A stretch of DNA of 64,000 nt from a virus: the IMG/VR virus record IMGVR_UViG_3300027973_000044, positions 1 to 64,000 of that record. One strand, written 5' to 3'. The stretch's first letter is position 1. Every line of letters starts with the position of its first letter. Position numbers and translations under genes: made by a program. Below the pieces are notes generated by a model that was given only the letters and a program-made list of their open reading frames with translations, was not told the DNA's origin and ran no database searches. Positions 22,812-62,709 of the stretch are shown here, in pieces.

Positions 22812-22836
22812 TAGAATTACTGTATAAATATAGTAT

Positions 22837-30991: not shown

Positions 30992-31040
30992 TATTTATAG
31001 TTTCATAACCACTTTTAGAACAAATATCCATGTATAAATA
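30992..31040. promoter_or_regulatory. Divergent late promoter pair
   Basis: TATAAATA on minus (30992-30999) and on plus (31033-31040, five nt before ATG 31046). Confidence 0.7.
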
Positions 31041-39900: not shown

Positions 39901-41699
39901 GGGAAACTGTTTACTTTGTAGATAGCTTCACGAACGATACAACTGCAACAGTAACTTTGTGTTCTCCTGTGGGTCGAGATTACCCTGCAGGTCAAACAGT
40001 TTATTTTTACAACTGGCTAGAGCGAATTGAAAATATTAATTATCAAATTCTTATTGGTACACTTTCTGCTATGGTCAAAAGACCAGTGTATCCAGATCCA
40101 AGTGTTCTTGAGATTAATCTAACAACAAGTATACCTGGGTTTACCGGGTTAATATGTGATGCACCTGAGTCAATCTACAGACCAGTGATCATAACAAAGG
40201 CAGGAACCGGAAATGGTATAGTTTTCTCTGATCCATTCTGTGTGAATTGTGGTGATCTATGCACAGAGAGCTTTGGGTACGGTACAACTTTAACTCTTAT
40301 CGCTAGCGCAGATTACTTTAGCGCATTCAATAGATGGGAAGGGGGTACTTGCAATATGCTCAACACAGATTGCATCTTCACTGTAACAACTGCAGAAAGT
40401 ATTACAGCTTATTTTGACGCTTTACCGTTTTATTTTGTAACTGTAACGACCCCAGCAGGTAGAGTGATCTCTCAAGATTTAAAATTTATTATTGATGGCC
40501 CTGGTTCAGTAACTAATCCATATCTCGTTGGGTCTGTACTCACACTTTCAGCCTTGAAACCTGTTTCTGGTTGGGCCATGTTTGGATATGAGGGGGCAAG
40601 TACTTGTGTTGATCAGACAGAGTTTTGTAGCTTCTCTATAAACTCTGATGTCAATATTGATGTGCTGTACATACGCTATTATGAATACCAAGTAGCCGTA
40701 ACAACAGTCCCGGTAAATTCCGCATACGGCTATCTAGGCGATATTAGTGTCACAACTAATTATCCATGGTTTTATTACATTTGTTCAAGCAGTTGTACAT
40801 ATACATTTACCGGTACAAACACACTGGAGTGGGGCAATCAAATCATCACTCTCAGCGGCATGCCTAGACCTGGTTATAAATTAAAATATTGGCGCGGAGC
40901 ACCTTGTGGAGAAACAGAATTTTATACTAGCACATATGTTGATCTGCCAACAAATCTTGTTAACGCGGGTGATCAATGTATTTTTGAAGCTACAGAAAAT
41001 AGAAGCATTACAGGGGTCTTTGATATTGGGTACTATAGTCTTAACATTACTATTTCAGGCTTTGGAATTGGTAGAGTCTTCACAAGCGACGAAGGCATAA
41101 ATTATTTGAATGAAGACGGTAGCTTTACTAAATCATATGCCGTCTTGAGCGGCACAACATTTACATTATATGCAAGTGCGTTCGCTGGGAGCAGTATGTT
41201 GGGTCTATCAAGCAGGTACTGTTCTCCTGTATTCGGTGTATCCACATGCAACATCACAATGGATAGGGATGTGGATGTTATTGTTGAAATGTTTGCAAGC
41301 AACTTCTATACTTTGACTATGAATCTATGCACATGCGGCGTAAGTGTTACTTCGTTCCCAACAAGCCTTGGTGGTTCGTTGAGCTGTCCTTCCATATGCA
41401 CAGCCACTTACCCAGCTGGTAGAATAGTAAACCTGGATCAATTTAATGAAACAGAATCGTGTAATATACGTGCATTTACGGGTGACGGTGTGTACTATCA
41501 ATATACGCCTGGGGTTGGCGTCACTATTGCTGGAGCAGGTGCAACATTTAACAGTGGTGATGTGTTTGGATTAATTGATAGCACAGTGATCTTGAGCCCT
41601 GAAGGCGCACCATATACAACAGGTGCCGGTATTATAATAACACCGGATGCCTTTGTCTCCATGACAGAAAATAGGAGTGTAACCGCGGTACTGGTTTAA
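36915..41699 (+). CDS. Very large structural protein with C-terminal Cys-rich InlB-B-like (bacterial repeat) domains
   Basis: GTG start in a GTGA overlap; units such as GTGNGIV.SDP..VNCG..C...F..GTTLTLIA....F..WEG.C.....C.FTV....ITA.F repeated at ~40.2-41.5 kb. Confidence 0.7.
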   Translation: MSNLYTFQNSIIEGSLTPLDTYAPVSFLTWFNQKNYTTVDLDALFLQYKQYIIEWGRTKKVNAAKVNETIRDSYIQVLRELIIDYSTEEEKRFITNADLSDPSDLDIVLPFFINKIKQVCLYYANTRENLKTAQIQHNLRGSNYGIENLVKQLIFDAAQTNQVLFAQTTCNFPPISAIARQLSIYIEELYDLKSDYYNQGTPSPTKSTDIVNLATPNKAYERLYIDFKQAIIDAIRQYPFYITSLGINNFTVNPYLSGTELNYLKNRDFITYLSGGTEDLKLNLYKRLAPKYLGNDFYYLSTGSTRTDFVSGLLFSIKPLTGAPTLNLLNRQTPSVASVPSLENLYTEYEIGRFFLPQHQGLLIHNTPQKKYAIDVAQLQSNTVYAFPDPDIVGNTSYNNTQDNFLAPIAYTVDVSWNKRSRSNQFAFGDVLSTSYNQLYYGYESREQDLQLDVSGLSRTYDNVQFWEGARQEQWANPDIWPGLSRQEALPLADRQAALLVNDYTPVYWGSDIYNNEYGLLKKVSALKAASATTDSNGIMPNRNTTLATGDAVTDQSIAAKKVLIPGKLYFRNSITNTVSPASAALSAVFFKYPAVVKQEINESLYYFNMYYDTFVLETKNYVVVDTIIFDYDTQQITINSNPGTFFEKSLLNPKLEKFAGEWYSEYDKSLYLCFLTLGNRLSSSNYKLLYPKIYRTPLTNIKLSVVYPDPRNDITDMYSISAGFIEPPQIDLYEIDGVSFSRLEKNNLFNLTYLAKNTNSMPFFVNEQIQKNDPYYSSYEPEIFKPFYFIYDNNYSNPTLPFMVKYNASSTGTMGAHLPGEKILDVGQENIYNTTYLYCDGVKPLQINNIGRYIIQFDWESYSETSIFLGCNYYKVRNIGNDLIWNADTNDAQLLDTYNIDYFGSYREEIRSTTQIFSTFAFGTSGLDTTLYVNSGYLTAPFLSGQRTFTMDLKWSPSLTAAHTPDSYIARGLPWEPRVIPPFSKLALEFSLLSGETVYFVDSFTNDTTATVTLCSPVGRDYPAGQTVYFYNWLERIENINYQILIGTLSAMVKRPVYPDPSVLEINLTTSIPGFTGLICDAPESIYRPVIITKAGTGNGIVFSDPFCVNCGDLCTESFGYGTTLTLIASADYFSAFNRWEGGTCNMLNTDCIFTVTTAESITAYFDALPFYFVTVTTPAGRVISQDLKFIIDGPGSVTNPYLVGSVLTLSALKPVSGWAMFGYEGASTCVDQTEFCSFSINSDVNIDVLYIRYYEYQVAVTTVPVNSAYGYLGDISVTTNYPWFYYICSSSCTYTFTGTNTLEWGNQIITLSGMPRPGYKLKYWRGAPCGETEFYTSTYVDLPTNLVNAGDQCIFEATENRSITGVFDIGYYSLNITISGFGIGRVFTSDEGINYLNEDGSFTKSYAVLSGTTFTLYASAFAGSSMLGLSSRYCSPVFGVSTCNITMDRDVDVIVEMFASNFYTLTMNLCTCGVSVTSFPTSLGGSLSCPSICTATYPAGRIVNLDQFNETESCNIRAFTGDGVYYQYTPGVGVTIAGAGATFNSGDVFGLIDSTVILSPEGAPYTTGAGIIITPDAFVSMTENRSVTAVLV

Positions 41700-49668: not shown

Positions 49669-50424
49669 ATGGCTGGAACATACACATTTCATAGCAAATT
49701 GCACAGGGCAAGCCACCATACAATCTCTGGTACTACTCTACCAGATGCAGGGTTGGATCCTATTGCATCTCAAACACAACCATTTATTGGCGTATTCTTC
49801 AATACCATTCCAGATTCATTGGGATTCTTGACCATCGACACCAACAGCTATCAATGGTGGACAGCATATGCATCTGTGAGTACTTTGTCAGGTATCTGGG
49901 CACCTTCTCTGTCACTTTATAACACTGTTAATACATTGTCTACCAATTGGAATTTAGGTTATGTGGGTTATTCCAACTACTCACAAATCAGTAGTTTGTA
50001 CGTTTCAGTGTACACCACAGTGAGCACATTCAGTGCTGATTGGAATGCACCGTTCATAATGTTTACCAATCTAGCGCAAGAGTATACTGCAGCCAAGACA
50101 TTCTCTGGAACAGATCTCAGGATTAACAGTGGCACAAACACAGTAATTTGGGATGTGTCTTCCAATCAAGTGACCTTCATTACACTTTCCAGCAACTTAA
50201 ACTTTGCAAATCCTCTCAATCATAAAAAAGGTGGCAACTATACATTGAATGTAATTCAAAGCGGTGCAGGGGGGTATGATATCAGATTTAGCACTGCATA
50301 CAGATTTAACGATACAATTGCATTGTCTGGTGTAATTAGTACACTGTCTGGCAGCCGTACAATAATTAATTTTATGTCAGACGGAACACTACTGTACGGG
50401 GATAGGGTAGTGTTCCGCGGATGA
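49669..50424 (+). CDS. Short tail-fibre-like protein, paralogue of the next gene
   Basis: FHSKLHRASHHT N-terminus; Y.TV.T.S..W repeats; C-terminal KKGGNYTL.VIQ...F.SDG..LYG domain. Confidence 0.6.
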   Translation: MAGTYTFHSKLHRASHHTISGTTLPDAGLDPIASQTQPFIGVFFNTIPDSLGFLTIDTNSYQWWTAYASVSTLSGIWAPSLSLYNTVNTLSTNWNLGYVGYSNYSQISSLYVSVYTTVSTFSADWNAPFIMFTNLAQEYTAAKTFSGTDLRINSGTNTVIWDVSSNQVTFITLSSNLNFANPLNHKKGGNYTLNVIQSGAGGYDIRFSTAYRFNDTIALSGVISTLSGSRTIINFMSDGTLLYGDRVVFRG

Positions 50425-52550
50425 GCAATTTTCTTTTTCATAACAAGTTTCACCAGGCAAACCATCATACCATTGCCACTCCTGGTCTTCCAGATAGTGC
50501 AACAGATCCCATTGCATCTCAGTCTGAACCATTTCAAGGAATATTCTACAATTACTTAAATGCTCTTGTGAATCTTTCTGCAATTGATGTTTCATATCTG
50601 GAAACATTCTTAACAGATTCTATCACCACATTTGATGGATTATCAGTCAACACAATTCAGAGCATATATGCTGCAATCACAGCTAATGTATTTACAAACA
50701 GTCAGCAGTGGTTTGAGATGTACACTAATATCAATGCATTGAGTACCATATATGGTCTGTATCCAACTGTTTCAACCACTGTGAACACATACAGTGGCAA
50801 CTGGAACTTGGGTTATGATTTTTATAGCAGTCTCAATGCATTGAGCGCAAATTATTTCTCCACATACACCATGGTTAACACTTATAGCGCCAATTGGCCG
50901 TTCATCGATACAACTCTGAGACTTAATTTGATGCAACAGAATACGCGTTCCAAGAATTTCAGCGGCGTTAATATTACCAGCATAAGTGTTAATACTGCTG
51001 GTGTTTCGGCATATTGGAATTTGAGTGCAGCACAGTGTGCATTTTTCAGGCTCACAGGTACTACAGTATTTAAGAATATAGTTAATTCCAATAACAAGAA
51101 AAAAGGTGGTGAGTATACCCTTGTGCTGCAGCAAGACGGGTTTGGAAGCAGAAGTGTTACATTTGAAAGTGATTATGTATTTCCAACTGTGTATTTGGGC
51201 ACAGTGTCTGCAGCCTCACTATATGGCACAGGGTACAACACTTCTGGTCAACTGGGCTTAGGAAATACTAGCAATAGAAATGTATTTACTGCATTAACTG
51301 GCAATTGGTCACAGGTGATTTGTAGTACTGCTCATACCATGGCTCAGAGTGCCGGTACCACCAATTGGTTTGGTACAGGGTATAATGGCTTTGGACAATT
51401 AGGCTTGAATGATAATAGCAACAGAAATGTATTTACTGCATTAACAGGCAATTGGTCACAGATGGTGTGTGGTGGTGCTTATACCATGGCTCAGAGTGCC
51501 GGTACCACCAATTGGTTTGGTGCGGGTTTTAATTTTAACGGTGCATTGGGCCTTGGGGATAATAGCGATAGAAATGCACTCACACCGCTCACAGGCAATT
51601 GGTCACAGATGGTGTGTGGTGGTGCTCATACCATGGCTCAGAGCGCTGGCACCACCAAATGGTTTGGCACAGGTAGTAATAGCCAAGGTCAATTGGGACT
51701 AGGCGATGATGGCGCTGGTACCAATAGAAATGTATTCACACCACTCACAGGCAATTGGTCACAGATGATATGTGGCAGGGCACACACCATGGCATTGTCT
51801 GCTGGTACCACCAAATGGTTTGGCACAGGTGCAAATGGTTACGGTCAACTGGGTCTAGATGATACTATCATCAGAAATGTATTTACTGCATTAACTGGCA
51901 ATTGGTCGCAGATGGTTTGTGGTGCAGAGCATACTATGGCGCTAAGTGCTAATAACAAGTGGTTCAGTACTGGTAGGAATGTTGAAGGTCAACTAGGTCT
52001 AAATGATAATAGCGATAGAAATGTATTTACTGCATTAACTGGCGATTGGTCGCAGATGGTGTGTGGTTATTCTCATACCATGACCCAGAGTGCAGGTACT
52101 ATCAAATGGTTTGGCACAGGACAAAATTTTTATGGTGAATTGGGTCTTAGTGACAATAGCAATAGAGATGTATTTACAATATTAACTGGTGATTGGTTAC
52201 AAATGGCAAGCTCTTGTAATTGTATTCATACTATGGCTTTTGATCTGACTACTACAGACTCATACAGGACCAATGTTGTTGCTCCAACTGCTCTGAGTGT
52301 GACTGTGATTCGCTTCACATGTGATGGGAGCAAGTTGTATGGCAAGCCAACACCTTATTATTATGAGAGAGACACAATTTGGACGTATTTTGCAGGCCCT
52401 GGTGATCTTCACACCCCCAGCCCGGCTGAATTCTATATCAATGATTACTTCATACCCATCAATGGACTCACAGTCGCAGGTGTGGTGGTCCCAGCACAAG
52501 GGTATTCTGATGGTGGTGGCATAACTGTAGTAGAGGGGCTTCCATCCTAA
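50421..52550 (+). CDS. Tail-fibre-like protein carrying a 7-blade RCC1/BLIP-II repeat propeller (candidate receptor-binding protein)
   Basis: Seven G.N..GQLGL....RNVFT.LTG.WSQ..CG..HTMA units; N- and C-terminal parts paralogous to 49669-50424. Confidence 0.8.
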   Translation: MSNFLFHNKFHQANHHTIATPGLPDSATDPIASQSEPFQGIFYNYLNALVNLSAIDVSYLETFLTDSITTFDGLSVNTIQSIYAAITANVFTNSQQWFEMYTNINALSTIYGLYPTVSTTVNTYSGNWNLGYDFYSSLNALSANYFSTYTMVNTYSANWPFIDTTLRLNLMQQNTRSKNFSGVNITSISVNTAGVSAYWNLSAAQCAFFRLTGTTVFKNIVNSNNKKKGGEYTLVLQQDGFGSRSVTFESDYVFPTVYLGTVSAASLYGTGYNTSGQLGLGNTSNRNVFTALTGNWSQVICSTAHTMAQSAGTTNWFGTGYNGFGQLGLNDNSNRNVFTALTGNWSQMVCGGAYTMAQSAGTTNWFGAGFNFNGALGLGDNSDRNALTPLTGNWSQMVCGGAHTMAQSAGTTKWFGTGSNSQGQLGLGDDGAGTNRNVFTPLTGNWSQMICGRAHTMALSAGTTKWFGTGANGYGQLGLDDTIIRNVFTALTGNWSQMVCGAEHTMALSANNKWFSTGRNVEGQLGLNDNSDRNVFTALTGDWSQMVCGYSHTMTQSAGTIKWFGTGQNFYGELGLSDNSNRDVFTILTGDWLQMASSCNCIHTMAFDLTTTDSYRTNVVAPTALSVTVIRFTCDGSKLYGKPTPYYYERDTIWTYFAGPGDLHTPSPAEFYINDYFIPINGLTVAGVVVPAQGYSDGGGITVVEGLPS
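51220..52240 (+). repeat. Seven tandem ~147-bp coding repeats (RCC1 blades)
   Basis: GG(C/T)(A/G)ATTGGT anchor at 51300, 51447, 51594, 51750, 51897, 52041, 52188; a 41-nt exact duplicate at 51334-51374 and 51481-51521. Confidence 0.9.
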
Positions 52551-52560
52551 ATAATAACAT

Positions 52561-53550
52561 ATGATGTCATGCAGCAATGTGGAACCAGTGAGTGCTTTTT
52601 ATAGCACCAATCTTCAATCCAAGATTGAAAGTTACGACAGATTGGGTGCACGCATTTGTCGTGCTCTTGGTGCACCATTGATCAACATTGAAATTCATGC
52701 AGATCAATTGAATGAGTTTATTAGCATTGCTTGTGAAATGTACACAAAGTTTGCAGGATACACACAAGAGTATCTGGTGTTTGATAGCAAGCTGTACGAC
52801 CCAGGTGCAGGCTTGCGACTGGATGTTCTTTTCAGTCTAACAAAAGATTTTAATTTTAGAGCCAGGTTTGAGAATGTTTCCAATGATATCAGAGCACTAT
52901 ACAACGTTGGAAGAATGGTCATTGGTGATCCAAAAAACCCATACTTGTATCAAGTGTTTGATCAAAACAAACCCAGAGAATTGGAATTGCTGAACAGCTA
53001 CGATTATTTGATTGATAGTTACCGCAAGGTAACAGATGTGTTGGATTTTGAAGAAGGAAGTTCAGATGGCATTAACACCCTGTTCACAATTGAACAATCT
53101 TTGGCGCAACAAACCTACTTCAGCTACTCTCTAGGCAATTATGGGTTTGATTTGATCAGTTGGTACACATTGAAAAATTGGCTTGATACCCGTGAAAAGG
53201 TTTTAGCATTGCGTCGTGATGTGCGCTTTGATCCACGCACACAATACATGCAAATGTTCCCTGAACCCCGCAACACACATTTCTATGGCATTGTGACTTG
53301 CTATGTGGAAAGACCTTTAACAGACATTATCAAAGAGCAGTGGGTGTATCAATATGCACTTGCATTGACTAAAATAGCCATTGGCACAGTGCGTGGCAAA
53401 TATCAAGGCACACAATTGTTTGGTGGTGGCATTATTAATGCTGCAATTCTGGAAGATGGTAAAACAGAAAGAACAGAATTGGAGAGAAAATTATACGAAA
53501 GTGCACCAGGATTCGGGGATGCAGCACCCCCAGAATTCTTTGTAGGTTAA
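52561..53550 (+). CDS. gp13: Neck protein (T4 gp13-like)
   Basis: RALGAPLINIEIHADQL, WVYQYALALTK...G.VRGKY...LFGGG.IN, PPEFFVG. Confidence 0.88.
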   Translation: MMSCSNVEPVSAFYSTNLQSKIESYDRLGARICRALGAPLINIEIHADQLNEFISIACEMYTKFAGYTQEYLVFDSKLYDPGAGLRLDVLFSLTKDFNFRARFENVSNDIRALYNVGRMVIGDPKNPYLYQVFDQNKPRELELLNSYDYLIDSYRKVTDVLDFEEGSSDGINTLFTIEQSLAQQTYFSYSLGNYGFDLISWYTLKNWLDTREKVLALRRDVRFDPRTQYMQMFPEPRNTHFYGIVTCYVERPLTDIIKEQWVYQYALALTKIAIGTVRGKYQGTQLFGGGIINAAILEDGKTERTELERKLYESAPGFGDAAPPEFFVG

Positions 53551-53551
53551 C

Positions 53552-54007
53552 TTGAAACTCACAGTCAAAAATACCAAGTATGTGCAAGGCATTTTCAAGC
53601 CCACACACATGGAGAAATACAAAGGCCATGATTTGCCCAGATATCTGAGCAGTTGGGAATTGAAATTGTTTCGCTGGTGTGATATGAATCCCAATGTGTT
53701 GGAATGGGGCAGTGAATCCATTGTTATTCCATATGAAAGTCCTATTGATAGAAAAGTGCACAGATACATTGTGGATGCAGTGGTGAAACTCAAGACTGCC
53801 ACCGGCATAAAGAAGTATCTCATAGAGGTAAAGCCCTACAAACAGACCATAAAACCAGAGCAAACCCCTGGCAAACACAAGAAGACGTTGCTTTATGAGC
53901 AATTGACCTATATACAGAATCAGGCGAAATGGGAAGCGGCTAAATTCTATGCAAAGAAATATGGCTTCGAATTCACCATTTTAACTGAAAAGGAACTCAG
54001 GAAATAA
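53552..54007 (+). CDS. gp4: Head completion nuclease (T4 gp4-like, TnsA-N fold)
   Basis: GIFKP...KYKG, YLSSWE, WCD.NPNVLEWGSE..IPY, HRY.VD, LIEVKP, NQAKWEAA, F.ILTEKEL. Confidence 0.9.
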   Translation: MKLTVKNTKYVQGIFKPTHMEKYKGHDLPRYLSSWELKLFRWCDMNPNVLEWGSESIVIPYESPIDRKVHRYIVDAVVKLKTATGIKKYLIEVKPYKQTIKPEQTPGKHKKTLLYEQLTYIQNQAKWEAAKFYAKKYGFEFTILTEKELRK

Positions 54008-54031
54008 GTGAAATCTGATATAAATAATAAT

Positions 54032-54706
54032 ATGGCCTTACGCTTATTAGTTGAGACACCAGCACCTGAAGACCAATACGAATACGTGGTCGAAGAAAAA
54101 AGTGGCAATCAACCCAGCACCATGTACATCAAGGGACCATACATGCAGTGTGAAGAGGTTAACAAGAACAAGAGAGTTTATGATTCCGGTGAAATGGACA
54201 AAGAAGTTAACCGTTACATCAATGAAATGGTGAGAACAAACCGTTCCATGGGCGAATTGAACCATCCCACGCAGGCTGAAGTTAACCTGGAGCGTGCCTG
54301 TCATTTGGTAACTGAACTCAACCGCAGTGGCAATGTTTATTATGGCAAATCCAAAGTGCTCACCACACCCATGGGACAGATTGTTAGAAGCTTGATCAAT
54401 GATGGTGTGCGTGTAGGCATGAGTTCTCGTGCCCTGGGAAAACTGGAAGAGTGTGGCAATGGTGTGAACCGCGTCAAGGACTTTCGTTTGGTTGCAGTGG
54501 ATTGTGTTGCTGATCCAAGTTTTCCCAAAGCTTTCGTCAATGGCATTCTTGAATCCAAGCAATTTGTAGTAACCCAAGATGGTCACTACGAAGAATATTA
54601 TGATTCATTTTCCGACAGACTTCGCAACCTGCCTCGCAGAGATGTTGAAGGTTATCTCAAAGAACAAATTCTGGAGTTCTTTGGCAAGATCAGCAAAGTG
54701 CTCTAA
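54032..54706 (+). CDS. gp21: Prohead core protease (T4 gp21-like)
   Basis: IKGPYMQ...NKNKRVY, GELNHP, TPMGQIV, GMSSRALG, DCVADPS; start ATG 54032 five nt after TATAAATA (54019-54026). Confidence 0.95.
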   Translation: MALRLLVETPAPEDQYEYVVEEKSGNQPSTMYIKGPYMQCEEVNKNKRVYDSGEMDKEVNRYINEMVRTNRSMGELNHPTQAEVNLERACHLVTELNRSGNVYYGKSKVLTTPMGQIVRSLINDGVRVGMSSRALGKLEECGNGVNRVKDFRLVAVDCVADPSFPKAFVNGILESKQFVVTQDGHYEEYYDSFSDRLRNLPRRDVEGYLKEQILEFFGKISKVL

Positions 54707-55080
54707 TGAATATCTCCCAGCCATTCACACCTGCTGTTATTTCGGTTGGTTCAACCCAACAAAAGCCTGAATTGGCTGCCCAACTGGCCATGAAGTCACA
54801 GAAGAAGATGAAACCTGCCATGGTTGTTGCGAAAGATGAAGAATGCTATGAAGATGAAACAGGTTATGTCAACATGTGCAAAAAATGTCGTAAAGATTCA
54901 CAGAATTTCGTAGGCGCGCACTATAAATATAACAGTATGCAAGAGAGAGTTAATATTGTCAACTTTTTAAAGTTTTTGAACGAGAAAAATTATGCTGAGG
55001 CGCATAAATATTTAAAGAAAGTTATGGAAATGAAATTAGCTAAGCGCATTGCACTAAATAAAAATGTGAGGTTATTTTAA
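54706..55080 (+). CDS. Small prohead-core-type protein (gp67/gp68 position); internal promoter and start at 54937
   Basis: TAATG coupling to gp21; internal TATAAATA at 54922-54929 then ATG 54937 giving a 47 aa helical product. Confidence 0.55.
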   Translation: MNISQPFTPAVISVGSTQQKPELAAQLAMKSQKKMKPAMVVAKDEECYEDETGYVNMCKKCRKDSQNFVGAHYKYNSMQERVNIVNFLKFLNEKNYAEAHKYLKKVMEMKLAKRIALNKNVRLF

Positions 55081-55083
55081 TTT

Positions 55084-55953
55084 ATGACAAAAGACATCAA
55101 AACTATTCTAAAAGAAGCAACACAAGATCTTCTCTCTGAGGAAGTTCTTAAGGAAATCGAAGCAGCATTTAATTCTGCTATTTCTGAAAAAGTGCAACTT
55201 CACGTTACAAAAGCTCTTACCGAACAAGATGAAGATTACAGCAGCAAGCTAGAGCATCTTCTGGAAACCATCGATGCAGATCATACATCCAAGCTCGAAA
55301 AAGTTGTTGAAGCCATTGATGCTAACCACACAGAGAAATTAAAAGCTCTTGTGGAGAAGTATAGCAACGCTCTCAGCAAAGAAGCCAAAGCTTTCAAAGA
55401 CAGCACCATTGACAATATTAGCACATACCTTGAAGCGTATATCGACGAGACATTGCCTGCTAATGAAATTAAGGATGCTGTTAAGAATCGCAGAGCCTTG
55501 GAGGTTCTCGATCAACTAAGATCCATTTTGGGCGTTGATGCCGCCCTGGCGAAAGAAAGTGTTCGCGAAGCCATCGTAGATGGAAAGCGTCAATTACAAG
55601 AAGCTTCTGAGAAGCTTGAAGCCGCTAACAAAGAGTTAGCTCAGGTTAAGGCACAACTCGCCACGCGTAATGCGGAACTTACACTCGAAAAGAAGACTGT
55701 AGGTTTATCCGCTCGCAAGAAAGAGTATGTGAACAAGGTGATGAAGACCAAGAGTAGCGAATTCATTACTGAGAACATTGATTATGCCTTGAGCTTATTC
55801 GATAAGACAGAAAAAGAGCGGCTTCAAAATATTAAAGAGGAAGCGGTGCAAGATGCAGCTGCAACACAAGTGGATCGTCCAGTAATGGAAGAGACAGAAG
55901 TTGTTGCTGAATCAGTCACCAACCCTTACCTCAAAGAACTTTCTAAGTACTAA
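55084..55953 (+). CDS. gp22: Prohead core scaffold protein (gp22-like)
   Basis: Acidic coiled-coil between protease and capsid; LSEE....I..AF, ISTYLEAYI.E, NPYLKEL end. Confidence 0.8.
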   Translation: MTKDIKTILKEATQDLLSEEVLKEIEAAFNSAISEKVQLHVTKALTEQDEDYSSKLEHLLETIDADHTSKLEKVVEAIDANHTEKLKALVEKYSNALSKEAKAFKDSTIDNISTYLEAYIDETLPANEIKDAVKNRRALEVLDQLRSILGVDAALAKESVREAIVDGKRQLQEASEKLEAANKELAQVKAQLATRNAELTLEKKTVGLSARKKEYVNKVMKTKSSEFITENIDYALSLFDKTEKERLQNIKEEAVQDAAATQVDRPVMEETEVVAESVTNPYLKELSKY

Positions 55954-56048
55954 TTAGTACTAGTAAAGAAGTTAAAGAGGCGCAAGCCTGATTTATATTG
56001 TAGATTTTATATATTCTACAGGTCGAAAATAAAGGAGAACTAATAATT

Positions 56049-57527
56049 ATGAAATCAATCAGACCTACACAGTCTTACATTGATGAGTCTCGCGCACAAG
56101 CGTTGCTCGAAAAGTGGAAACCAGTTTTGGATTACACTTCGGCCAACGTTAAAGCCATCGAAGATGATCATACTCGTTTGAACACAGCCATGCTCTTGGA
56201 AAACCAAGAAGCTTGGTGCGTCAATGAGGCTAATCAATCGGGTGGTGGTGCCGCTGGCACAGGTTCTGTCTTCGGCTCCAACGCCACAGGTAACTACGGG
56301 AACCAAATTCCCAATAGCTCACCTCAAGGTGATTGGTATGCTCAAGGCGATGCTCGTTTGCCTAAGATTCTCATTCCAATGATTCGTAGAACGTTCCCCG
56401 AGTTAATCACCAATGAAATTGTAGGCGTACAGCCCATGGGTGGACCAGTTGGTCTAGCCTTTGCTTTACGTTACAAGTATTCTCCATATCAGCTTGGCAA
56501 CGATGGCATCGATGGTTCCGGCACAAATGCTGGCAATCTTCTTGCCAATCCCCAACAAGCATCGCTTAACAAGGAGCTTGGTTACCAATACCTCGACACC
56601 CGCTACACTGGTACATCCAGCACCACCCTAACCGGTGGCGCACCTGGGACAGACGCCGCAAGCCTCTTCCCTTGGATCAACCAAGATAACGGTGTGGCTC
56701 AACTTCTCAGCCAGTTCGAATTGACGGGCAAAATCCCTCAGATCGAAGTCAGCTTTGAAAAGACAGCCGTCGAAGCCGGTACCCGCAGACTCGCTGCTCG
56801 CTGGTCGGTAGAACTCGAACAGGATCTTAAGAACATGAACGGTATTGATATCGATACTGAGCTCACCAACGCTATGTCGTATGAGCTACAGGCCGAAATC
56901 GACCGTGAAATGATCGCTCGCATGATCCAAGTCTCACTCAACGCTGGTGCTGGCACAGGATACTCCGTATGGAGCCCTGCTTCCGCAGACGGCCGTTGGT
57001 TGGTAGAGCGCAATCGCGATTTCTATCAGAGACTCATCATCGAGGCTAACAGAATTGCTGTTCGCAATCGTCGTGGTGCTGCCAACTTTATTGTTGCCAC
57101 ACCTCGCGTTTGCGCGATCCTCGAGATGCTTCCTGAGTTTCAATGGGTGCCAGTCCAAGGCAATGTCAACACTCAACCTGTTGGCGTAGCTAAGGTTGGT
57201 AACCTTGGTGGCAGATTCAACGTTTACCGTGATACACGTACAGAGGCCCAATATGAGGGTGGCTTACGTTCCGGTTACCGCGTTGAGTACGCTCTACTCG
57301 GATACAAAGGTCCGGAGTTTTATGACACTGGTATCATCTATTGCCCTTACATCCCTGTAATGGTACAGAGAACCATTGGTCCTAATGACTTCTCGCCACG
57401 CGTTGGCTTGCTAACTCGTTATGGCGTTGTTGACAATATCTTCGGTGCTAATCTATATTATCACACGATTCTATTGTCCGGACTTGGTCAAGCGTTCACA
57501 CCTGCAAGTGCTTCAGTTTATTTCTAA
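56049..57527 (+). CDS. gp23: Major capsid protein (T4 gp23-like)
   Basis: KWKPVL, LLENQ, LIPMIRR..P.LI...IVGVQPM.GP.GL.FALR, RRLAARWSVELEQDLK, EIDREMI, GYKG...YD.G..YCPY, GLLTRYG; AAGGAG SD. Confidence 0.97.
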   Translation: MKSIRPTQSYIDESRAQALLEKWKPVLDYTSANVKAIEDDHTRLNTAMLLENQEAWCVNEANQSGGGAAGTGSVFGSNATGNYGNQIPNSSPQGDWYAQGDARLPKILIPMIRRTFPELITNEIVGVQPMGGPVGLAFALRYKYSPYQLGNDGIDGSGTNAGNLLANPQQASLNKELGYQYLDTRYTGTSSTTLTGGAPGTDAASLFPWINQDNGVAQLLSQFELTGKIPQIEVSFEKTAVEAGTRRLAARWSVELEQDLKNMNGIDIDTELTNAMSYELQAEIDREMIARMIQVSLNAGAGTGYSVWSPASADGRWLVERNRDFYQRLIIEANRIAVRNRRGAANFIVATPRVCAILEMLPEFQWVPVQGNVNTQPVGVAKVGNLGGRFNVYRDTRTEAQYEGGLRSGYRVEYALLGYKGPEFYDTGIIYCPYIPVMVQRTIGPNDFSPRVGLLTRYGVVDNIFGANLYYHTILLSGLGQAFTPASASVYF

Positions 57528-57576
57528 AGCATTTGTTGGCAGCGAATAAGAAAAAATTCCCGGTACGTCCCGGTTT

Positions 57577-57606
57577 AAAAAGAGGCCTTTCGGGGCCTCT
57601 TTTTTT
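57577..57606 (+). terminator. Rho-independent terminator after the capsid gene
   Basis: AAAAAGAGGCCT-TTCG-GGGCCTC followed by a T run. Confidence 0.9.
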
Positions 57607-57626
57607 GTATTAAGCCAGTCAAAATA

Positions 57627-57634
57627 TATAAATA
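57627..57634 (+). promoter_or_regulatory. Late promoter TATAAATA
   Basis: Exact motif six nt before ATG 57641. Confidence 0.75.
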
Positions 57635-57640
57635 ATACAT

Positions 57641-58726
57641 ATGGCCATTATACCGGTATCCGCTTTGAAGGATGCATTTGCAGATGGAGACACACCTGAC
57701 TCAAATGATTTTATCAATTTAATTGACACCACATGTGCTCTGCCTTCTGCAACCAACAGTAACATTGGATCCACTTACACAACAAACTTGACTCTCGTGC
57801 AAGGCATGACCGGGATCCCTGTGGTAATAAACGGTAGCACCTACTATCTTCCTGTGTTCACCACTTATGTGGCTCCAGATCAAGCAGCTTATACAGCCAC
57901 TGTGAGGCAGACCTATTCAAATGCAGTCTTGGCAGAAACTGTGGGTGCAAGATGTGCCACATTCATACAGAGCGTTTGCGGATATGCGCCAGGTGATGTT
58001 GTCACAGCAGCCTGCATATGTTCAGATGATAAAAATGCTCCCATCTTCCCCAACAATACATTTGGTCAATACCCCACATCATTGCAACAATTTTCTGGAC
58101 CATTTTTTGCTGGTGGCATTGGTGGTTATCCCTTCCCAGGCATTGTGGGTCTGTTTGCATGGATGAGCCATGTGACCACACCAGGTGCATTGTTTATCTA
58201 TGTGCATCCCCACATTGGCATTACTCAGAGTGGACAAGTGGGATTCATGAAGCGCAGAGGGCAGCAGGGCAATCTGTCTCAAACTTGTGGTGCAGTTAAT
58301 GCAGCACAAGCCAGAATTGTTGGTACACTTAGTGCGACTCCTCCAACTTTTCCAAGTGCAGAATTCACCATCAATGATTTCCAACAATTCACCTTGGTGA
58401 ATGCACTGTATTCTAACCGAACCACCCGCAATGCATTGACAGCAGCTGCTCCGTTGCAGGGTGGCACATATGGCCAGAGAATGAAGATAGCCACTGATGC
58501 CATTCTGGTTGCAGCATTGAGTGCAGTGGAAACAATTTTACCCATATCTTATGGTGCTTTCTTTCAAGGTGAAAACACAGTGGATGTGTTTGTGCATGCA
58601 GGCACATTCATCAATGTGGACGATGGGTACAGTGCTTACATAGACACCATTGCATTCAAGAAATACAATCCAGTCACACAGACATTCACCACCCTCACCA
58701 GCGCTTTCACAGCAGCTTTTGCCTAG
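57641..58726 (+). CDS. LCIB/LCIC-family (theta-class) carbonic anhydrase domain fused to a structural-type N-terminal segment
   Basis: CICSDD, F.AGGIGGYPFPG..G..A..SHV, LFIYVHPHIGI...GQVG...RRGQ....S.TCGA (Cys/His/Cys Zn ligands of the LCIB family); N-terminus LKDAFADGDTPDSNDFINLIDT. Confidence 0.75.
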   Translation: MAIIPVSALKDAFADGDTPDSNDFINLIDTTCALPSATNSNIGSTYTTNLTLVQGMTGIPVVINGSTYYLPVFTTYVAPDQAAYTATVRQTYSNAVLAETVGARCATFIQSVCGYAPGDVVTAACICSDDKNAPIFPNNTFGQYPTSLQQFSGPFFAGGIGGYPFPGIVGLFAWMSHVTTPGALFIYVHPHIGITQSGQVGFMKRRGQQGNLSQTCGAVNAAQARIVGTLSATPPTFPSAEFTINDFQQFTLVNALYSNRTTRNALTAAAPLQGGTYGQRMKIATDAILVAALSAVETILPISYGAFFQGENTVDVFVHAGTFINVDDGYSAYIDTIAFKKYNPVTQTFTTLTSAFTAAFA

Positions 58727-58785
58727 TCCGCATAATCTAGATCCCCAGCAGTAGCAGATTGTATGTATTGAGCTAAATTATTGTA

Positions 58786-59394
58786 TTGAAATTTAAAGAT
58801 ATATTTGTATTTGAAAAGCGGTTGGCAGAGTTCGCCGGTGCACCATTTGCTGTTTCCACATGTTGTTGTACACATGCACTAGAACTATGCTTCCGTATTC
58901 TAAAACCCAATTATGTAGAGTTTTCATGTCATACCTACATGGGAATCATCATGATGCTCAAAAATTTACATGTTCCCTTTCGAATGATTAACGATCAATG
59001 GCAGGGTGAATATAATTTTCGCAATAGCCCCATATGGGACTGTGCCAGGAAGTTTGTACCTAACATGTATGTGTCAGGATCTTACAAATGCGTTAGTTTT
59101 GGTGAAAACAAACCTCTTGATCTTGGCCGTGGGGGTGCAATTCTCCTGGATAATGAACAACACTACAAGCTTCTAACCATGTTAAAATTTGATGGCAAAG
59201 ATGTACAATATGAGCCATGGATAGATCAACAATATTTTGATGTGGGGTATCACTACAAGATGAATAACCGCGAATGCATTGTTGGTTTAGACAAACTTAA
59301 TGAATTCATAACCAAAGGTGACTTCTCTTATTCCCATACACCATATAGAGACTGTCGCAGAATGATAGTCAAAGGCATGCCACTGTTTACATGA
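58786..59394 (+). CDS. Short DegT/DnrJ-family PLP-dependent sugar aminotransferase-like protein
   Basis: FEKRLAEF.GAPFAV...CTHALEL, WDCA, SFGENKPL..GRGGAIL (PLP Lys), GYHYKM; about 200 aa, lacks the usual C-terminal domain. Confidence 0.7.
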   Translation: MKFKDIFVFEKRLAEFAGAPFAVSTCCCTHALELCFRILKPNYVEFSCHTYMGIIMMLKNLHVPFRMINDQWQGEYNFRNSPIWDCARKFVPNMYVSGSYKCVSFGENKPLDLGRGGAILLDNEQHYKLLTMLKFDGKDVQYEPWIDQQYFDVGYHYKMNNRECIVGLDKLNEFITKGDFSYSHTPYRDCRRMIVKGMPLFT

Positions 59395-60260
59395 AGATAG
59401 ATTACGTATTTTCGTTTGCTAATCATTTTTATAAAGAGCTCTACAAGCAGCATTTTGATTGCGCTCTTATTAATCCGCGCAATGTTCATGAGCTACAGTC
59501 TGTGGATACAGCAAAGAATATTATATTTTTATTTGGAGACCCATACACTCTCAACTATATCAATAGGAGCAATCTTTCTGGCAAGAATATAATGTTTTTA
59601 AGACGGCATGAGTTCTATGAAAATAATTTTGCATTGCTTCAAAAAAACCGTGTTAAGATTCAGCATTTTTTTACTTTAAATTCTTTCTTTCAAAACAAAT
59701 TAAGAGACTCATACGGTATTGAGTCCACCATAGAGAAAAATTATCTGGATGAACAGCTATGGACATACAAAGGAAGAGGCCATGGCAAAGAGATTGCTTG
59801 GGTGGGTGAATTTCAGCAACGCAAATCACCAGATTATTTGAGTGAATTATTGTCTTGTTTGCCGGATTATAACATCCATTGTGCCATTTCACCAGGTCCC
59901 TCGAAACAACTGTATGTAGATTTTCTACAAAACCATAATCATAGCAATTTATTCCTGCATGATGATATTAATACTCAAGAGAAAATGAACAAATGGTTGG
60001 ATGATAAAAACTATTTGGTAACCACATCCATATCAGAGGGCTTGCCTAATAATGTCCTGGAGGCTCTGGCCAAAGGTATTAAGCCCGTAGTAAGAGATTA
60101 CCCTGGCAATATATTTCATAAATTTGCATATGAAAATATTTCTCAATTGAAATTGCACTTATCCGGTGAATACAATTCACTAGAATATCGGCACATGATT
60201 GAAGAGCATTATGGATTAAAGCATTTTCTAGACTTTAGAGACAAGGTTATTGAGCTCTAA
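59391..60260 (+). CDS. GT-B (GT4/GT1-like) glycosyltransferase
   Basis: IAWVG.FQQRK, TSISEGLPNNVLEALAKGIKPV (EX7E motif). Confidence 0.8.
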   Translation: MKIDYVFSFANHFYKELYKQHFDCALINPRNVHELQSVDTAKNIIFLFGDPYTLNYINRSNLSGKNIMFLRRHEFYENNFALLQKNRVKIQHFFTLNSFFQNKLRDSYGIESTIEKNYLDEQLWTYKGRGHGKEIAWVGEFQQRKSPDYLSELLSCLPDYNIHCAISPGPSKQLYVDFLQNHNHSNLFLHDDINTQEKMNKWLDDKNYLVTTSISEGLPNNVLEALAKGIKPVVRDYPGNIFHKFAYENISQLKLHLSGEYNSLEYRHMIEEHYGLKHFLDFRDKVIEL

Positions 60261-61215
60261 CAAAGGACTTTTGTATCTTCATGTCAAAGAGGTGCGGGCA
60301 TGCAGTCTTGGGGCATACAATTGGTGAATCAAATAGTTTGATTCTTAGGTTTGGATTCTCTTGAAGATTGCCAAAATATCTCTGTCGGCAACAAGCGCCC
60401 CAGATGGAACCATCTTCTTTGATGTTAAGAGCATTTTTGCCTGCGTTACAGAAAATGCCTCTGAAGTTGTGAAAGTTATTTGCTAATATCTCCTGGCCGT
60501 CAAATGGGGTCTTTCTGCCATCAAAATATTCAACCTCTATTCTATCATTTTCAAAATTATATTTTCTATTGGATGGATTGTGCTTGATGAAATCTATTTG
60601 CTCTTGATTGTAAAGTGGAGTAAAGTGTCTTTTGTAATCATTAACATCAAGAACTCCTTTGTTATTGACAGTGATACCGTCTATTTTGAAGAACTCTTTT
60701 GATGCCTCTATTGCTACGTCCCAATGTTCAGGGTCCATCAACACATGCAATTCAATATGCTTTTTCTTTTTTAAAAATATTTCAAAGATGCTTTTGAAGT
60801 GATCTATGTTTGCATACCTTGGGTGAAAGCTTGGATACAGAATATCAATCAAATCTACAGCTTTAGACCAGAATTCTAAATTATTACCCAGATTTGTATT
60901 CATTGCCACCAGAAAGTTAATGGATCTCAGGTATGACATCACTTCTTCAACTCCTTTATAGAAACTGGGCTCACCTCCAGTGAGGGTTATCTTTCTTTGA
61001 GGCTTGGATTGTATGCAGGGGTTATCTTTATATAAGTTATCAAAGAAATTTATATATATTTCAGAAGAAATATGCGGAAACATACCTTTGTGAAGAACAG
61101 GGGGGCAGTAATTGCATCGTTGATTGCATAGATTATTAATTACAAAATTAATTGCAAAGATGTCATTGGTGATGCCTTTGATGATGGGTTGGTTAATATG
61201 GTTTTGCATGTTCAC
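60247..61215 (-). CDS. Radical SAM protein with a SPASM/twitch-like C-terminus
   Basis: CNQRCNYC, LTGGEP, NTNL, SFHP, CNAG...I.EDG.I..ACC, CPKTACP. Confidence 0.88.
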   Translation of the reverse strand: MNMQNHINQPIIKGITNDIFAINFVINNLCNQRCNYCPPVLHKGMFPHISSEIYINFFDNLYKDNPCIQSKPQRKITLTGGEPSFYKGVEEVMSYLRSINFLVAMNTNLGNNLEFWSKAVDLIDILYPSFHPRYANIDHFKSIFEIFLKKKKHIELHVLMDPEHWDVAIEASKEFFKIDGITVNNKGVLDVNDYKRHFTPLYNQEQIDFIKHNPSNRKYNFENDRIEVEYFDGRKTPFDGQEILANNFHNFRGIFCNAGKNALNIKEDGSIWGACCRQRYFGNLQENPNLRIKLFDSPIVCPKTACPHLFDMKIQKSFVRAQ

Positions 61216-61999
61216 ACTTCCAGCACAATGTATTGGATTTATTGTTACTCAATGAATTTACGATATGTTTATAAGTTTCAGAATTAACAACTTCTTCGTA
61301 GGAGCTTTCTATTAGATTGCCTATCTTATGCTCCAAACTCCAGTCCATGCAACAAAGATACACATCTCCATTTGGTAATAAAACGTGTTGTTTGATTTTG
61401 TTTGTAGAGCATCTTATGGCCATATTTGCGGTGTTATCTATTTTTTTAAAGCTATCAACATTACCAGCTCTACTATTCCATCTGAAGTAATCAGGGGTTA
61501 GAAAGGAGATTTTTGCTCGGGTTTTTACTAGTAAGGGTTGTATTGAAGGGTGTGGCTCTTTTCCAAAGAAAACTATTGCATCGCTATTCTCTAGGATTTG
61601 CAGACATTTTTCAACATTATGAATATAATTATCATCAATTACTAAGTTCATTGAATTATCATTAACCGGCAAATGCAAGATAATGTTATCATACTCTCGA
61701 TTCAGAATTGTATTAATATTATCCTGGGACGCTTTATAGAGGGTTGTAGATATTCTTGTGTAATGCCCTCTGCTTCTGCAGAGGGCCACCATCTTGAAAC
61801 AATCTTTATGAAAGAAAGGTTCAGAGAACCCTGTAAAATGTATTCTTGTAGAGATTGGCAGTTTGGTTAAAACGTGACTAAAATTTTCTAAAGATAGCTT
61901 CTTTATATGAGAATTGTATTTAAATAAAAAAGAATCTTGTGGGCAATAAGAGCATTTTATGCTGCACCCCGCTATAGTGGTTATCTCTAATGCATCCAT
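61193..61999 (-). CDS. Radical SAM / SPASM protein
   Basis: CSIKCSYCPQ, FTGFSEP, SRAGN, C...LPNGDVYLCCMDW...IGNL, C.KCE; start refined to ATG 61999. Confidence 0.88.
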   Translation of the reverse strand: MDALEITTIAGCSIKCSYCPQDSFLFKYNSHIKKLSLENFSHVLTKLPISTRIHFTGFSEPFFHKDCFKMVALCRSRGHYTRISTTLYKASQDNINTILNREYDNIILHLPVNDNSMNLVIDDNYIHNVEKCLQILENSDAIVFFGKEPHPSIQPLLVKTRAKISFLTPDYFRWNSRAGNVDSFKKIDNTANMAIRCSTNKIKQHVLLPNGDVYLCCMDWSLEHKIGNLIESSYEEVVNSETYKHIVNSLSNNKSNTLCWKCEHAKPY

Positions 62000-62013
62000 A
62001 TATAATATGATAT

Positions 62014-62709
62014 ATGCCCAATATTGTTTTACTAGCAATTAGTTACCGATCTGGTTCTAATTGTCTTAGATCAATATTGGACCAGAATAACGACATATCT
62101 GCTAAAGGTGAAATATTTAGGCCTTATTTTAAGTTGAACAATGTTAATCGTGACAGTCTTCTGGGTGAGATTGACACACGTCTGAATAGATTTAGACACA
62201 GGGAAGACAAAAATAAAGTTTTCTTATATACCAGTGTTGTTGATGAGATATTGAAGCTAGAAGAATATGACTTGATCCGCAGCATTTTACCTGACAAATC
62301 AATCTTTCTATATCGGGAAGATCTCTTGGAACAGTACTGTTCAGTCAAGGTGGGGAGTGTGACAGGTGTATACCAGGACACAGAGCAATCCAAACAAGAA
62401 AAACAAAAAATAAGAATAGAGTTTAATCTTAATGAATATTTGAATTTTGTTGCCAGAATGAATCGTCATAGAGACTTCTTTGTTGCCTTTTATAAGAAAT
62501 ATAAGATAAACTATATTACTGTAGAATACAAGAGCATATTGAAGCGAATAGAGGAAATATTTAAATTTTTAGGTTTAGACTATAAAGGCGAATTACCGAC
62601 TACTATTAAATCTGAAAGTCGATCATTGCACGAAATTATAATTAATTTTAAAGATGTTCCTACTAATATGAATCATAAGCTAGTAGTTGATGACATTATT
62701 CCTGCTTAA
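62014..62709 (+). CDS. Sulfotransferase (Stf0/LpsS-like)
   Basis: 5'-PSB RSGSN.L...LDQ...I...GEIF, LYREDLLEQYCS, VEY, F.FLGL, I.NF. Confidence 0.75.
   Translation: MPNIVLLAISYRSGSNCLRSILDQNNDISAKGEIFRPYFKLNNVNRDSLLGEIDTRLNRFRHREDKNKVFLYTSVVDEILKLEEYDLIRSILPDKSIFLYREDLLEQYCSVKVGSVTGVYQDTEQSKQEKQKIRIEFNLNEYLNFVARMNRHRDFFVAFYKKYKINYITVEYKSILKRIEEIFKFLGLDYKGELPTTIKSESRSLHEIIINFKDVPTNMNHKLVVDDIIPA

Follow-up and report, generated by a model that had tools for sequence, protein, structure and literature searches.

An LCIB-type carbonic anhydrase with a portable N-terminal tag in a freshwater T4-like phage: a candidate late, virion-attached enzyme

Why would a T4-like phage place a carbonic anhydrase (CA) gene directly behind its major capsid gene, and does the enzyme serve in the cytoplasm of the host or ride on the particle? 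This question is raised by the first 64 kb (64,000 nucleotides, hereafter the window) of the 81,923-base IMG/VR virus record IMGVR_UViG_3300027973_000044, whose CheckV completeness is 39% and whose source is a divergent, uncultured T4-like myovirus from freshwater. The gene encodes 361 amino acids (aa), in which an 80-residue N-terminal module (the N-module) precedes a domain of the LCIB, or theta, class of CA. We propose, tentatively and at somewhat less than even chances, that the product is a dimeric zinc CA, made late in infection and docked through its N-terminal tag as a low-copy protein of the virion. An earlier note on this DNA, written from the letters without database searches, had likewise pictured a CA displayed on or packaged in the virion, and had based this on late timing, on the slot after the capsid gene and on the N-terminal module. 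The gene and its predicted active-site codons are located as follows.

57641 to 58726, plus strand: open reading frame (ORF) of 361 aa, N-terminal module plus LCIB-type CA domain (ORF, Pfam, AlphaFold2 (AF2) and Foldseek)
57881 to 58723, plus strand: LCIB/theta-type CA domain, residues 81-361 (AF2, Foldseek and profile search)
58019 to 58027, plus strand: codons C127-S128-D129, holding the predicted first Zn ligand, the equivalent of PtLCIB4 S47 and the predicted catalytic Asp (alignment)
58169 to 58171, plus strand: codon H177, the equivalent of PtLCIB4 H88 (136/136; matches the mutated position of the 5b5z H88A chain)
58211 to 58213, plus strand: codon H191, predicted second Zn ligand, in the PH[IV]G motif (136/136)
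58253 to 58255, plus strand: codon R205, in the RRG motif (136/136; at the modelled dimer interface)
58286 to 58288, plus strand: codon C216, predicted third Zn ligand, in the TCGA motif (136/136)

The earlier note had assigned the C-terminal part to the LCIB/theta-CA family from four motifs, all of which are present (CICSDD at residues 125-130, GGIGGYPFPG at 158-167, HPHIGI at 189-194 and TCGA at 215-218), and a hidden Markov model (HMM) search bears the assignment out: Pfam PF18599 (LCIB_C_CA) matches residues 109-273 with 82.7 bits against a cut-off of 25 (E-value 3e-23), spanning profile positions 14-166 of 223, and a genome-level search repeats this match at 83.4 bits. No family besides PF18599 appeared in the Pfam search at E ≤ 1, and the NCBIfam search with the same protein gave a chance-level match alone (E 0.05). 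By phmmer the protein matches 6kfs, 9vzj and PtLCIB4, and weakly LCIB/LCIC of Chlamydomonas; a profile of 22 phage-type sequences reaches 6kfs (E 2.2e-30) and PtLCIB4 (E 4.7e-29) over nearly the whole domain. The AF2 model, built with a 136-row alignment, has a mean predicted local distance difference test score (pLDDT) of 87, with values of 93-99 in nearly all 10-residue blocks of the CA part (one block at 85 and the last at 80). When this model was searched against the PDB with Foldseek, the best eight matches were all LCIB-family chains, among them 6kfs (E 5.6e-16, TM-score TMt 0.85) and 5b5y, which is PtLCIB4 (E 1.8e-15, TMt 0.81), both at probability 1.00. Canonical beta-CAs of the Pro_CA type, which share the superfold and belong to another family, were rejected (E 4e-4 to 2e-2, TMt 0.36-0.53).

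Six residues, C127, D129, H177, H191, R205 and C216, are invariant in all 136 aligned homologues. Of these, C127, H191 and C216 align with the matching motifs of 6kfs and PtLCIB4 and would form a Cys-His-Cys zinc site, which we take to be the arrangement in LCIB crystal structures; the earlier statement that all three ligands are intact thus holds in every aligned sequence. The S47R and H88A chains of PtLCIB4 set the mapping of two further positions, with S47 falling on S128 and H88 on H177 in the profile alignment, and position 128 holds Ser in 122 of the 136 sequences and Ala in 9, which is the wild-type state of PtLCIB4 and not the Arg of the S47R chain. PtLCIB3 and PtLCIB4 are reported to be active CAs. 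A further candidate defect, an Ala in place of the algal Arg six residues after the first Cys (C-S-D-E-V-N-R), was considered as a lost catalytic residue and rejected; it does not count as a defect because Arg is found in just 4 of the 136 family members. Two further traits mark the phage clade: about 12 residues are inserted behind C-S-D-D, and near the C-terminus stands GTFINVDDGY, a strongly conserved motif that the short cellular homologues lack. Taken together, residues 81 to 361 or thereabouts are, judged by sequence and alignment, a bona fide LCIB-family domain with a complete and strongly conserved catalytic set.

A two-copy model of the protein gave an ipSAE of 0.91, against 0.00 for the best of three controls; the mark used for a dimer is reached by 20 of 30 proteins solved as one-chain pairs and by 1 of 23 solved single chains. 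The runs agreed in at least 96% of their contacts, with a partner pLDDT of at least 85. The modelled interface comprises residues 128-134, 152-160, 164-170, 176-177 and 205-209 and no residue of the N-module, and in it H177 contacts R205 and residues 130-131 of the other copy. Because LCIB dimers have already been solved, this result may be memory on the part of the predictor, and the likeness is not proof of binding; even so, the CA domain probably works as a homodimer with its active site at the subunit interface. We consider it likely, from the conserved residues, that the protein is catalytically active on CO2/bicarbonate.

We next turn to the N-terminus, which the earlier note had called unlike a CA and reminiscent of attachment segments of phage fibre or decoration proteins. 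The two segments that it had singled out, LKDAF.DGD.P...DF.NLIDT at residues 9-30 and GIPVVINGSTYYLPVF at residues 58-73, are both present and belong to the following features, the second of which is followed by a Thr/Ala/Pro-rich linker that runs to about residue 80.

57653 to 57733, plus strand: portable N-terminal tag, residues 5-31, a predicted helix, G-D-x-P loop and helix (PHROG and hhalign)
57812 to 57853, plus strand: predicted beta-hairpin of the N-module, residues 58-71 (AF2 secondary structure, low confidence)

The N-terminus is indeed not CA-like, and its first 30 or so residues match, N-end to N-end, the starts of a beta-helix protein and of a Flavobacterium-phage protein annotated as structural. 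The beta-helix protein, P0262, aligns with the module over residues 1-35 of both (hhalign probability 88%, P 2.8e-6), and at its residue 36, right after the tag, begins a pectate-lyase-like right-handed beta-helix (PF12708, 57.3 bits; PF13229). The second, gp046 of Flavobacterium phage lotta8-2, is a protein of 635 aa at the end of the tail-gene block whose start matches the tag (tblastn E = 10; hhalign probability 82%, residues 4-31) and which also has a hairpin-like segment similar to residues 58-73 of the CA protein. With the module of gp046 as query, 15 phage records were retrieved, 13 from Flavobacterium phages and 2 being accessions of one crAss-like gut phage, and in the three further records that were checked, the annotated proteins (623, 130 and 179 aa) enter the match within their first nine codons. 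In addition, residues 3-31 match positions 4-32 of phrog_22781 (function not assigned), N-end to N-end, at a borderline E of 0.0013. At least six proteins that are otherwise unrelated, one of them tailspike-type, thus begin with a tag of about 27 residues, and those bearers whose origin is established all come from phages of Bacteroidota. We regard the shared tag as a putative portable N-terminal element and, indirect and of modest statistics as it is, as the best argument for an anchor. P0199, a protein of 71 aa that is 53% identical to residues 1-75, consists of the N-module alone and is either a stand-alone protein or a fragment.

Two other ways of reaching the particle were considered. T4 capsid-targeting sequences are cleaved at an L-x-E site; such a sequence was rejected here, as residues 1-98 contain no Glu and the first L-A-E, at 97-99, lies in the first CA helix. 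As to decoration proteins, neither PHROG nor BFVD revealed any likeness of the CA protein to Hoc or Soc, so that this part of the earlier proposal found no backing.

The transcription of the gene is suggested by the sequence between it and the gp23-type capsid gene, where the earlier note had placed a terminator and an exact late promoter. Both are found there.

56049 to 57527, plus strand: gp23-type major capsid protein gene, 492 aa (tblastn to cyanophage gp23/major head proteins, E down to 4e-59)
57577 to 57604, plus strand: intrinsic-terminator-like hairpin with T-run, 3' of gp23 (12 pairs, loop of 4; gp23 stop at 57527)
57627 to 57634, plus strand: TATAAATA, a T4-type late-promoter-like box (exact match, 6 nt 5' of the ATG)

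The ATG at 57641 is the first possible start, because an in-frame stop codon, TAA, falls within the TATAAATA box, and the box leaves no space for a Shine-Dalgarno sequence before this ATG. In the window as a whole the number of TATAAATA boxes is mildly raised (16, against 6.6 ± 2.6 in shuffled sequences, 1 of 100 of which reached 16). Their placement is far from chance: 10 of the 16 have an ATG 4-8 nt downstream, and 7 of the 16 stand at the head of an ORF of 70 aa or more, as do a fraction of 0.012 of random positions. The CA gene therefore carries a T4-type late box at the spacing used by other ORFs of the same phage and, as a box 4-8 nt before an ATG leaves no Shine-Dalgarno room, leaderless or near-leaderless late messages are implied. 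TATAAATA is the late -10 element of T4; we infer rather than observe late timing, and consider late expression of the CA gene very probable. Further examples of the box lie at 22823, 31033 and 54019 on the plus strand, as does 57627 itself, and at 30999, 15558 and 15190 on the minus strand.

Given the capsid-adjacent position of the gene, we wondered whether this setting is shared by its relatives. IMG/VR holds 39 related viral loci, whose neighbours were clustered into five settings and one fragment (L039); the identities of the neighbours were checked on one or two loci per group and otherwise follow from cluster membership. In group A (the window, L001-L004 and L008) the CA gene follows gp23, a position taken by 5 of the 39 related loci, and the terminator-like hairpin is kept 5' of the CA gene in all five. 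In group B (L005-L007, L009-L017 and the partial L023) the CA protein is 77-81% identical and has the same 80-aa N-module, and its gene follows, at a distance of 14 nt, a portal gene of T4 type (PF07230, E 8e-105) that is itself preceded by a gp15-type gene. Group C (L018-L022) encodes a short, different N-terminus, next to genes that match tail-fibre-connector or RCC1 proteins. Group D (L024-L029) has LCIB genes in tandem pairs, on phage contigs as long as 217 kb; an N-extension of 100-130 aa is present on the first copy and missing from the second. In the crAss-like group E (L030-L038), the order is portal, unknown protein, major capsid protein of the Crass_capsid family (PF23898), unknown protein, LCIB and "virion structural protein". 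The earlier argument from a post-capsid slot often used by decoration proteins does not survive this comparison: close relatives that share the N-module are found behind the portal gene, and further homologues next to fibre-like genes, within crAss-like head modules or amid non-structural genes. As the position is thus variable, a place next to the capsid gene carries no weight. What does appear to recur is a neighbourhood of late or virion genes, homologues lying within head or fibre gene blocks in four of the five groups, together with a lineage-specific N-terminus on a conserved enzyme domain.

The late-type box recurs as well. An ATAAATA box stands 5-6 nt 5' of the ATG of the homologue in every listed locus of groups A and B, directly adjoining the portal stop codon in group B, and it is also found before the homologues of L020-L022 and the first copies of L024, L025 and L029, with an overall spacing of 4-7 nt; in L018, L019, L026 and L027, ATAAGTA takes its place. 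In group D a late-type box goes with the first copy and is missing from the second. The crAss-like loci have no late-type box before the LCIB gene in the listed upstream sequences. By analogy, the tandem of group D (for example L026 7602-8807 and 8811-9668, or L028 6859-7980 and 7989-8921) recalls the LCIB/LCIC pair and suggests a hetero-oligomer.

How do these phage proteins relate to cellular ones? A word-indexed protein search returned 136 relatives at E ≤ 0.001, with PF18599 in all 120 of those listed, and an exhaustive search of representatives of 50%-identity clusters returned 563 at E ≤ 0.001, 131 at E ≤ 1e-10 and 17 at E ≤ 1e-30. A tblastn search of the INPHARED isolates with the whole protein found no match, and BFVD contained no LCIB-type viral structure, its best matches being giant-virus CAs (E 3e-3, TM 0.27-0.42). 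We then built a quick maximum-likelihood tree, whose root was not inferred, from 24 viral rows (of 35 non-redundant, less than 93% alike) and 29 cellular rows (retained of 76 domains, less than 75% alike); the cellular relatives were found by one peptide pattern in genome contigs, which biases their taxonomic spread. All 24 viral rows and L041 fall into one clade (SH-aLRT 99, stem 1.28). L041 (JBAXKR010000165.1, 1571 bases) is a contig binned in a bacterial metagenome-assembled genome (MAG); its LCIB gene is nested within the crAss-like group, and a phage contig was probably mis-binned here. Phage LCIB proteins thus form a clade known solely from phage contigs. Its sister row is L042, from a Chitinophagaceae MAG, where the gene (121 bits, profile positions 10-213) has a cellular context between genes for OsmC, an L,D-transpeptidase and an outer-membrane beta-barrel; this sister position is tentative, given the long branches that come together at the viral stem and the pattern bias of the cellular sample. 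The sister row, the distribution of the tag among phages, the crAss-like carriers in the same clade and the lack of Shine-Dalgarno room before the ATG lead us to favour, with some reserve, a freshwater Bacteroidota host.

A possible sign of transcription comes from four metatranscriptome runs (X4, X5, X11 and X13), used as contigs and stemming from one year and habitat, possibly from one campaign; such contigs give neither start, strand nor level, DNA carry-over into an RNA library is possible, and depth cannot rank genes. Contigs without differing letters cover gp22 and gp23, and also most of the CA gene, in X4 at 57653-58023, 58267-58422 and 58406-58734 and in X5 at 58095-58360 and 58578-58772. 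On the LCIB gene, X11 and X13 yielded no contig, though holes in contig cover prove nothing; cover is likewise missing over 53500-54058 and 57549-57652 and, save for one partly fitting contig near 60700 in X4, over 58953-62100 in all four runs. The contigs over gp22-gp23 (54944-57548) stop at 57544-57548 in X4, X5 and X11, about 30 nt before the terminator stem, and that of X5 continues into adaptor-like letters. The shared stop is no more than a hint at a capsid message that finishes close to the terminator.

The explanation that we favour, though at slightly below even chances, can now be spelled out. The gene, transcribed from a late box of its own into a message with little or no leader, would yield a zinc CA homodimer with a Cys127-His191-Cys216 site and with Asp129, His177 and Arg205 at the interface, which would interconvert CO2 and bicarbonate; the tag of the module formed by residues 1-80 would dock this cargo on the particle as a low-copy virion-attached protein, and the enzyme would act at or in a freshwater Bacteroidota host. 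Somewhat more tentatively still, several lineages of Bacteroidota phages, T4-like and crAss-like, may each have joined one phage-only LCIB-type CA to a virion adaptor of their own, so that the CA would be in or on the particle.

A good deal weighs against docking, most of it at the N-terminus. The earlier note had looked to a structure prediction of both domains, and only the CA domain came out confidently: residues 1-78 are modelled at pLDDT 40-68, and the N-module alone at 54, a model too poor for a fold search, which was dropped; an ESM Atlas search with residues 1-80 had a best score of 0.78, under the noise level. Taken one by one, the matches to the tag are weak (tblastn E = 10; E 9.9 at database scale for P0262; hhalign P of 1e-5 to 3e-6 on single pairs). 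P0262 is tailspike-type by fold and may or may not come from a phage, and the "structural" label of gp046 rests on similarity, the available part of PMC7077304 mentioning no mass spectrometry. The expectation that the N-terminal segment would be found on other cargo held for the tag of about 30 aa and failed for the whole 80-aa module, which was met solely on LCIB domains: a single-sequence search of longer proteins gave seven matches, all LCIB fusions; a profile search gave 14 LCIB fusions and P0262 at E 9.9, with no other significant long protein; an HMM of the module run against six-frame ORFs of the window and 40 loci found nothing besides LCIB genes below E 0.09; and its profile, run against four whole viral records, recovered the LCIB genes and one weak match alone. 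In group D, moreover, the neighbours in all six loci are genes for HNH endonuclease, ATPase and RNA ligase, and the second copies, lacking the N-extension, indicate that the CA domain can do without an anchor. The mean word depth of contigs on the CA gene (2.7-4.2) is far below that of gp22/gp23 contigs (115-420) in two libraries, a hint that the CA protein is not made in capsid-like amounts, and some LCIB proteins showed no CA activity in vitro, according to the review PMC5876011.

Much of this would suit a soluble, late auxiliary metabolic CA in the cytoplasm, which we regard as a serious though less probable alternative. Such an enzyme would feed the bicarbonate-dependent carboxylations of anaplerosis and of carbamoyl phosphate, purine and fatty-acid synthesis in the late, biosynthetically heavy phase, and its N-module would merely modulate solubility, assembly or localisation. 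The intact and invariant catalytic set is what this alternative would require, and the group D copies among non-structural genes, the extension-free second tandem copy and, as a weak measure, the low contig depth relative to gp23 speak for it too, as does the IMPDH/GMP-reductase-type gene in a group B locus (L007 1806-2798, PF00478, E 4.5e-51), a few genes 5' of the portal-LCIB pair. Viral CAs of the alpha, beta and gamma classes have moreover been reported as auxiliary genes (preprint 10.64898/2026.01.21.700432, in the part available). What a cytoplasmic enzyme leaves unaccounted for is the late-type box kept across the T4-like groups, the homologues within head or fibre blocks in four of the five context groups, the lineage-specific N-extensions with a tag common to a tailspike-type protein, and a clade that stands on a long stem apart from the cellular enzymes.

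Two further explanations depart from CA activity or from low copy number. An LCIB fold with another job, whether a binding or structural module with a structural zinc or a hydrolase of another small linear molecule, would fit the long stem of the phage clade (1.28), the restriction of the PF18599 match to profile positions 14-166 of 223, the clade-specific insertion after C-S-D-D, the C-terminal GTFINVDDGY that short cellular homologues lack, and LCIB homologues without measurable CA activity (PMC5876011, in part). It sits poorly with the invariance of Asp129, His177 and Arg205 in 136/136 besides the three ligands, and with a position 128 that is Ser/Ala, as in wild-type PtLCIB4, and not the Arg of S47R. 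Carbonyl sulfide (COS) and carbon disulfide (CS2) hydrolases use the beta-CA fold, and a purely structural zinc site is what has been proposed for LCIB/LCIC of Chlamydomonas; we nevertheless judge another job improbable. A stoichiometric capsid decoration protein in the manner of Hoc or Soc is less credible again, and we give it very little weight: the position directly after gp23 in the window and in L001-L004 and L008, together with the late box, would suit it, yet this position is not conserved, the 77-81% identical protein of group B follows the portal gene, the likeness to decoration proteins sought in PHROG and BFVD is absent, the modelled dimer does not involve the N-module, and the contig depth is about 1/100 of that of gp23, as a hint alone.

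Several observations concern the rest of the source genome. PHROG and Pfam searches of the window identified a large terminase, tail sheath, baseplate wedge, clamp loader, head-closure protein, head-tail adaptor and an RCC1-repeat protein, and one protease-sized and one scaffold-sized ORF lie immediately 5' of the gp23 gene, whose product is just 31-34% identical to that of any isolate by tblastn. A scan of the window found no transfer RNA (tRNA) gene, so tRNAs give no clue to the host. The window sequence is present in lake metagenomes of 18 studies and in six runs recorded as RNA. The RCC1-repeat protein (PF25390, PF00415) lies at 50421-52550, and another in L022 (4012-6555), two genes before the LCIB homologue, has a tail-fibre-connector-like C-end. 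The weak match to the N-module profile mentioned above lies at 41535-41630 of the window (E 0.0047, 13.7 bits) and pairs profile positions 15-46 with the last 50 or so residues of a 1617-aa ORF (36846-41699) that has no PHROG match and is probably a fibre protein; the similarity could be chance or a shared docking element. Directly 3' of the CA gene lies an island (58786-62709) in which Pfam recognises a DegT-like protein that is truncated (PF01041), a glycosyltransferase of the GT1 family (PF00534) and two radical SAM enzymes, of which one carries a SPASM domain; it also contains an ORF of 231 aa that no Pfam family matches. As this island is rearranged in L003 and L008 and missing from L002 and L004, it is not linked to the CA gene.

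To our knowledge, virus-encoded CAs have so far been known only as scattered auxiliary genes of the alpha, beta and gamma classes. Here, the LCIB/theta class, which is tied to algal CO2-concentrating mechanisms (CCMs), appears as a sizeable phage-only clade in lake viromes. If the enzyme does ride on the particle, infection would deliver an enzyme that equilibrates CO2 and bicarbonate, either to the surface of the host or to its interior, and it is tempting to speculate that there it could shift local pH and carbonate chemistry during adsorption or prime bicarbonate-dependent anaplerosis before phage genes are expressed. It would then be the first virion enzyme to act on inorganic carbon instead of a polymer, and would widen the repertoire of virion enzymes beyond depolymerases and lysins. 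Alternatively, if the enzyme is cytoplasmic, inorganic-carbon supply would emerge as a bottleneck of late infection in freshwater Bacteroidota. In practical terms, the shared tag may also help to predict which proteins of Bacteroidota phages belong to the virion.

The literature searched describes no phage or viral LCIB-type CA, and the closest known systems resemble the phage protein in part. PtLCIB4 and PtLCIB3 of Phaeodactylum tricornutum and other solved LCIB_C_CA proteins (5b5y, 6kfs, 9vzj) share PF18599 and the fold (TMt 0.81-0.85) and, for PtLCIB4 and 6kfs, the Cys-His-Cys set, the Asp two residues past the first Cys, the His equivalent to H88, the Arg of RRG and, on the phage side as a model, a homodimer with the site at its interface; in contrast to them, the phage protein is just 18-22% identical by structural alignment, is encoded by a phage, and has the insertion of about 12 residues, a distinct conserved C-terminal hairpin motif and the 80-residue N-module. 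LCIB and LCIC of Chlamydomonas (5k5w, 5b5x) have the same family and fold, although the match is weaker (E 2e-9 to 4e-7, TMt 0.69-0.76); they are components of the chloroplast CCM for which the part of PMC5876011 available reports no CA activity in vitro. LCIB-like proteins from bacteria, namely Bacteroidota, Balneolota and Planctomycetota (L042, for example), belong to the same Pfam family, but are 25-36% identical, measure some 230-275 aa, lack the N-module and stand in cellular gene contexts, as far as a pattern-biased sample tells.

Viral alpha, beta and gamma CAs, and the giant-virus beta-CAs of BFVD, are likewise virus-encoded enzymes of CO2 and bicarbonate, yet of other CA classes, and the available part of 10.64898/2026.01.21.700432 reports none with a late structural-module position or a virion-type tag. 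The tailspike depolymerases with a right-handed beta-helix, finally, share the layout of a short N-terminal adaptor with an enzymatic cargo, and P0262, which bears the same tag, is of this type. Tailspikes are typically trimeric and their cargo cleaves glycans, whereas the phage protein studied here is modelled as a dimer, its attachment is putative, and the cargo that it would carry is a CA.

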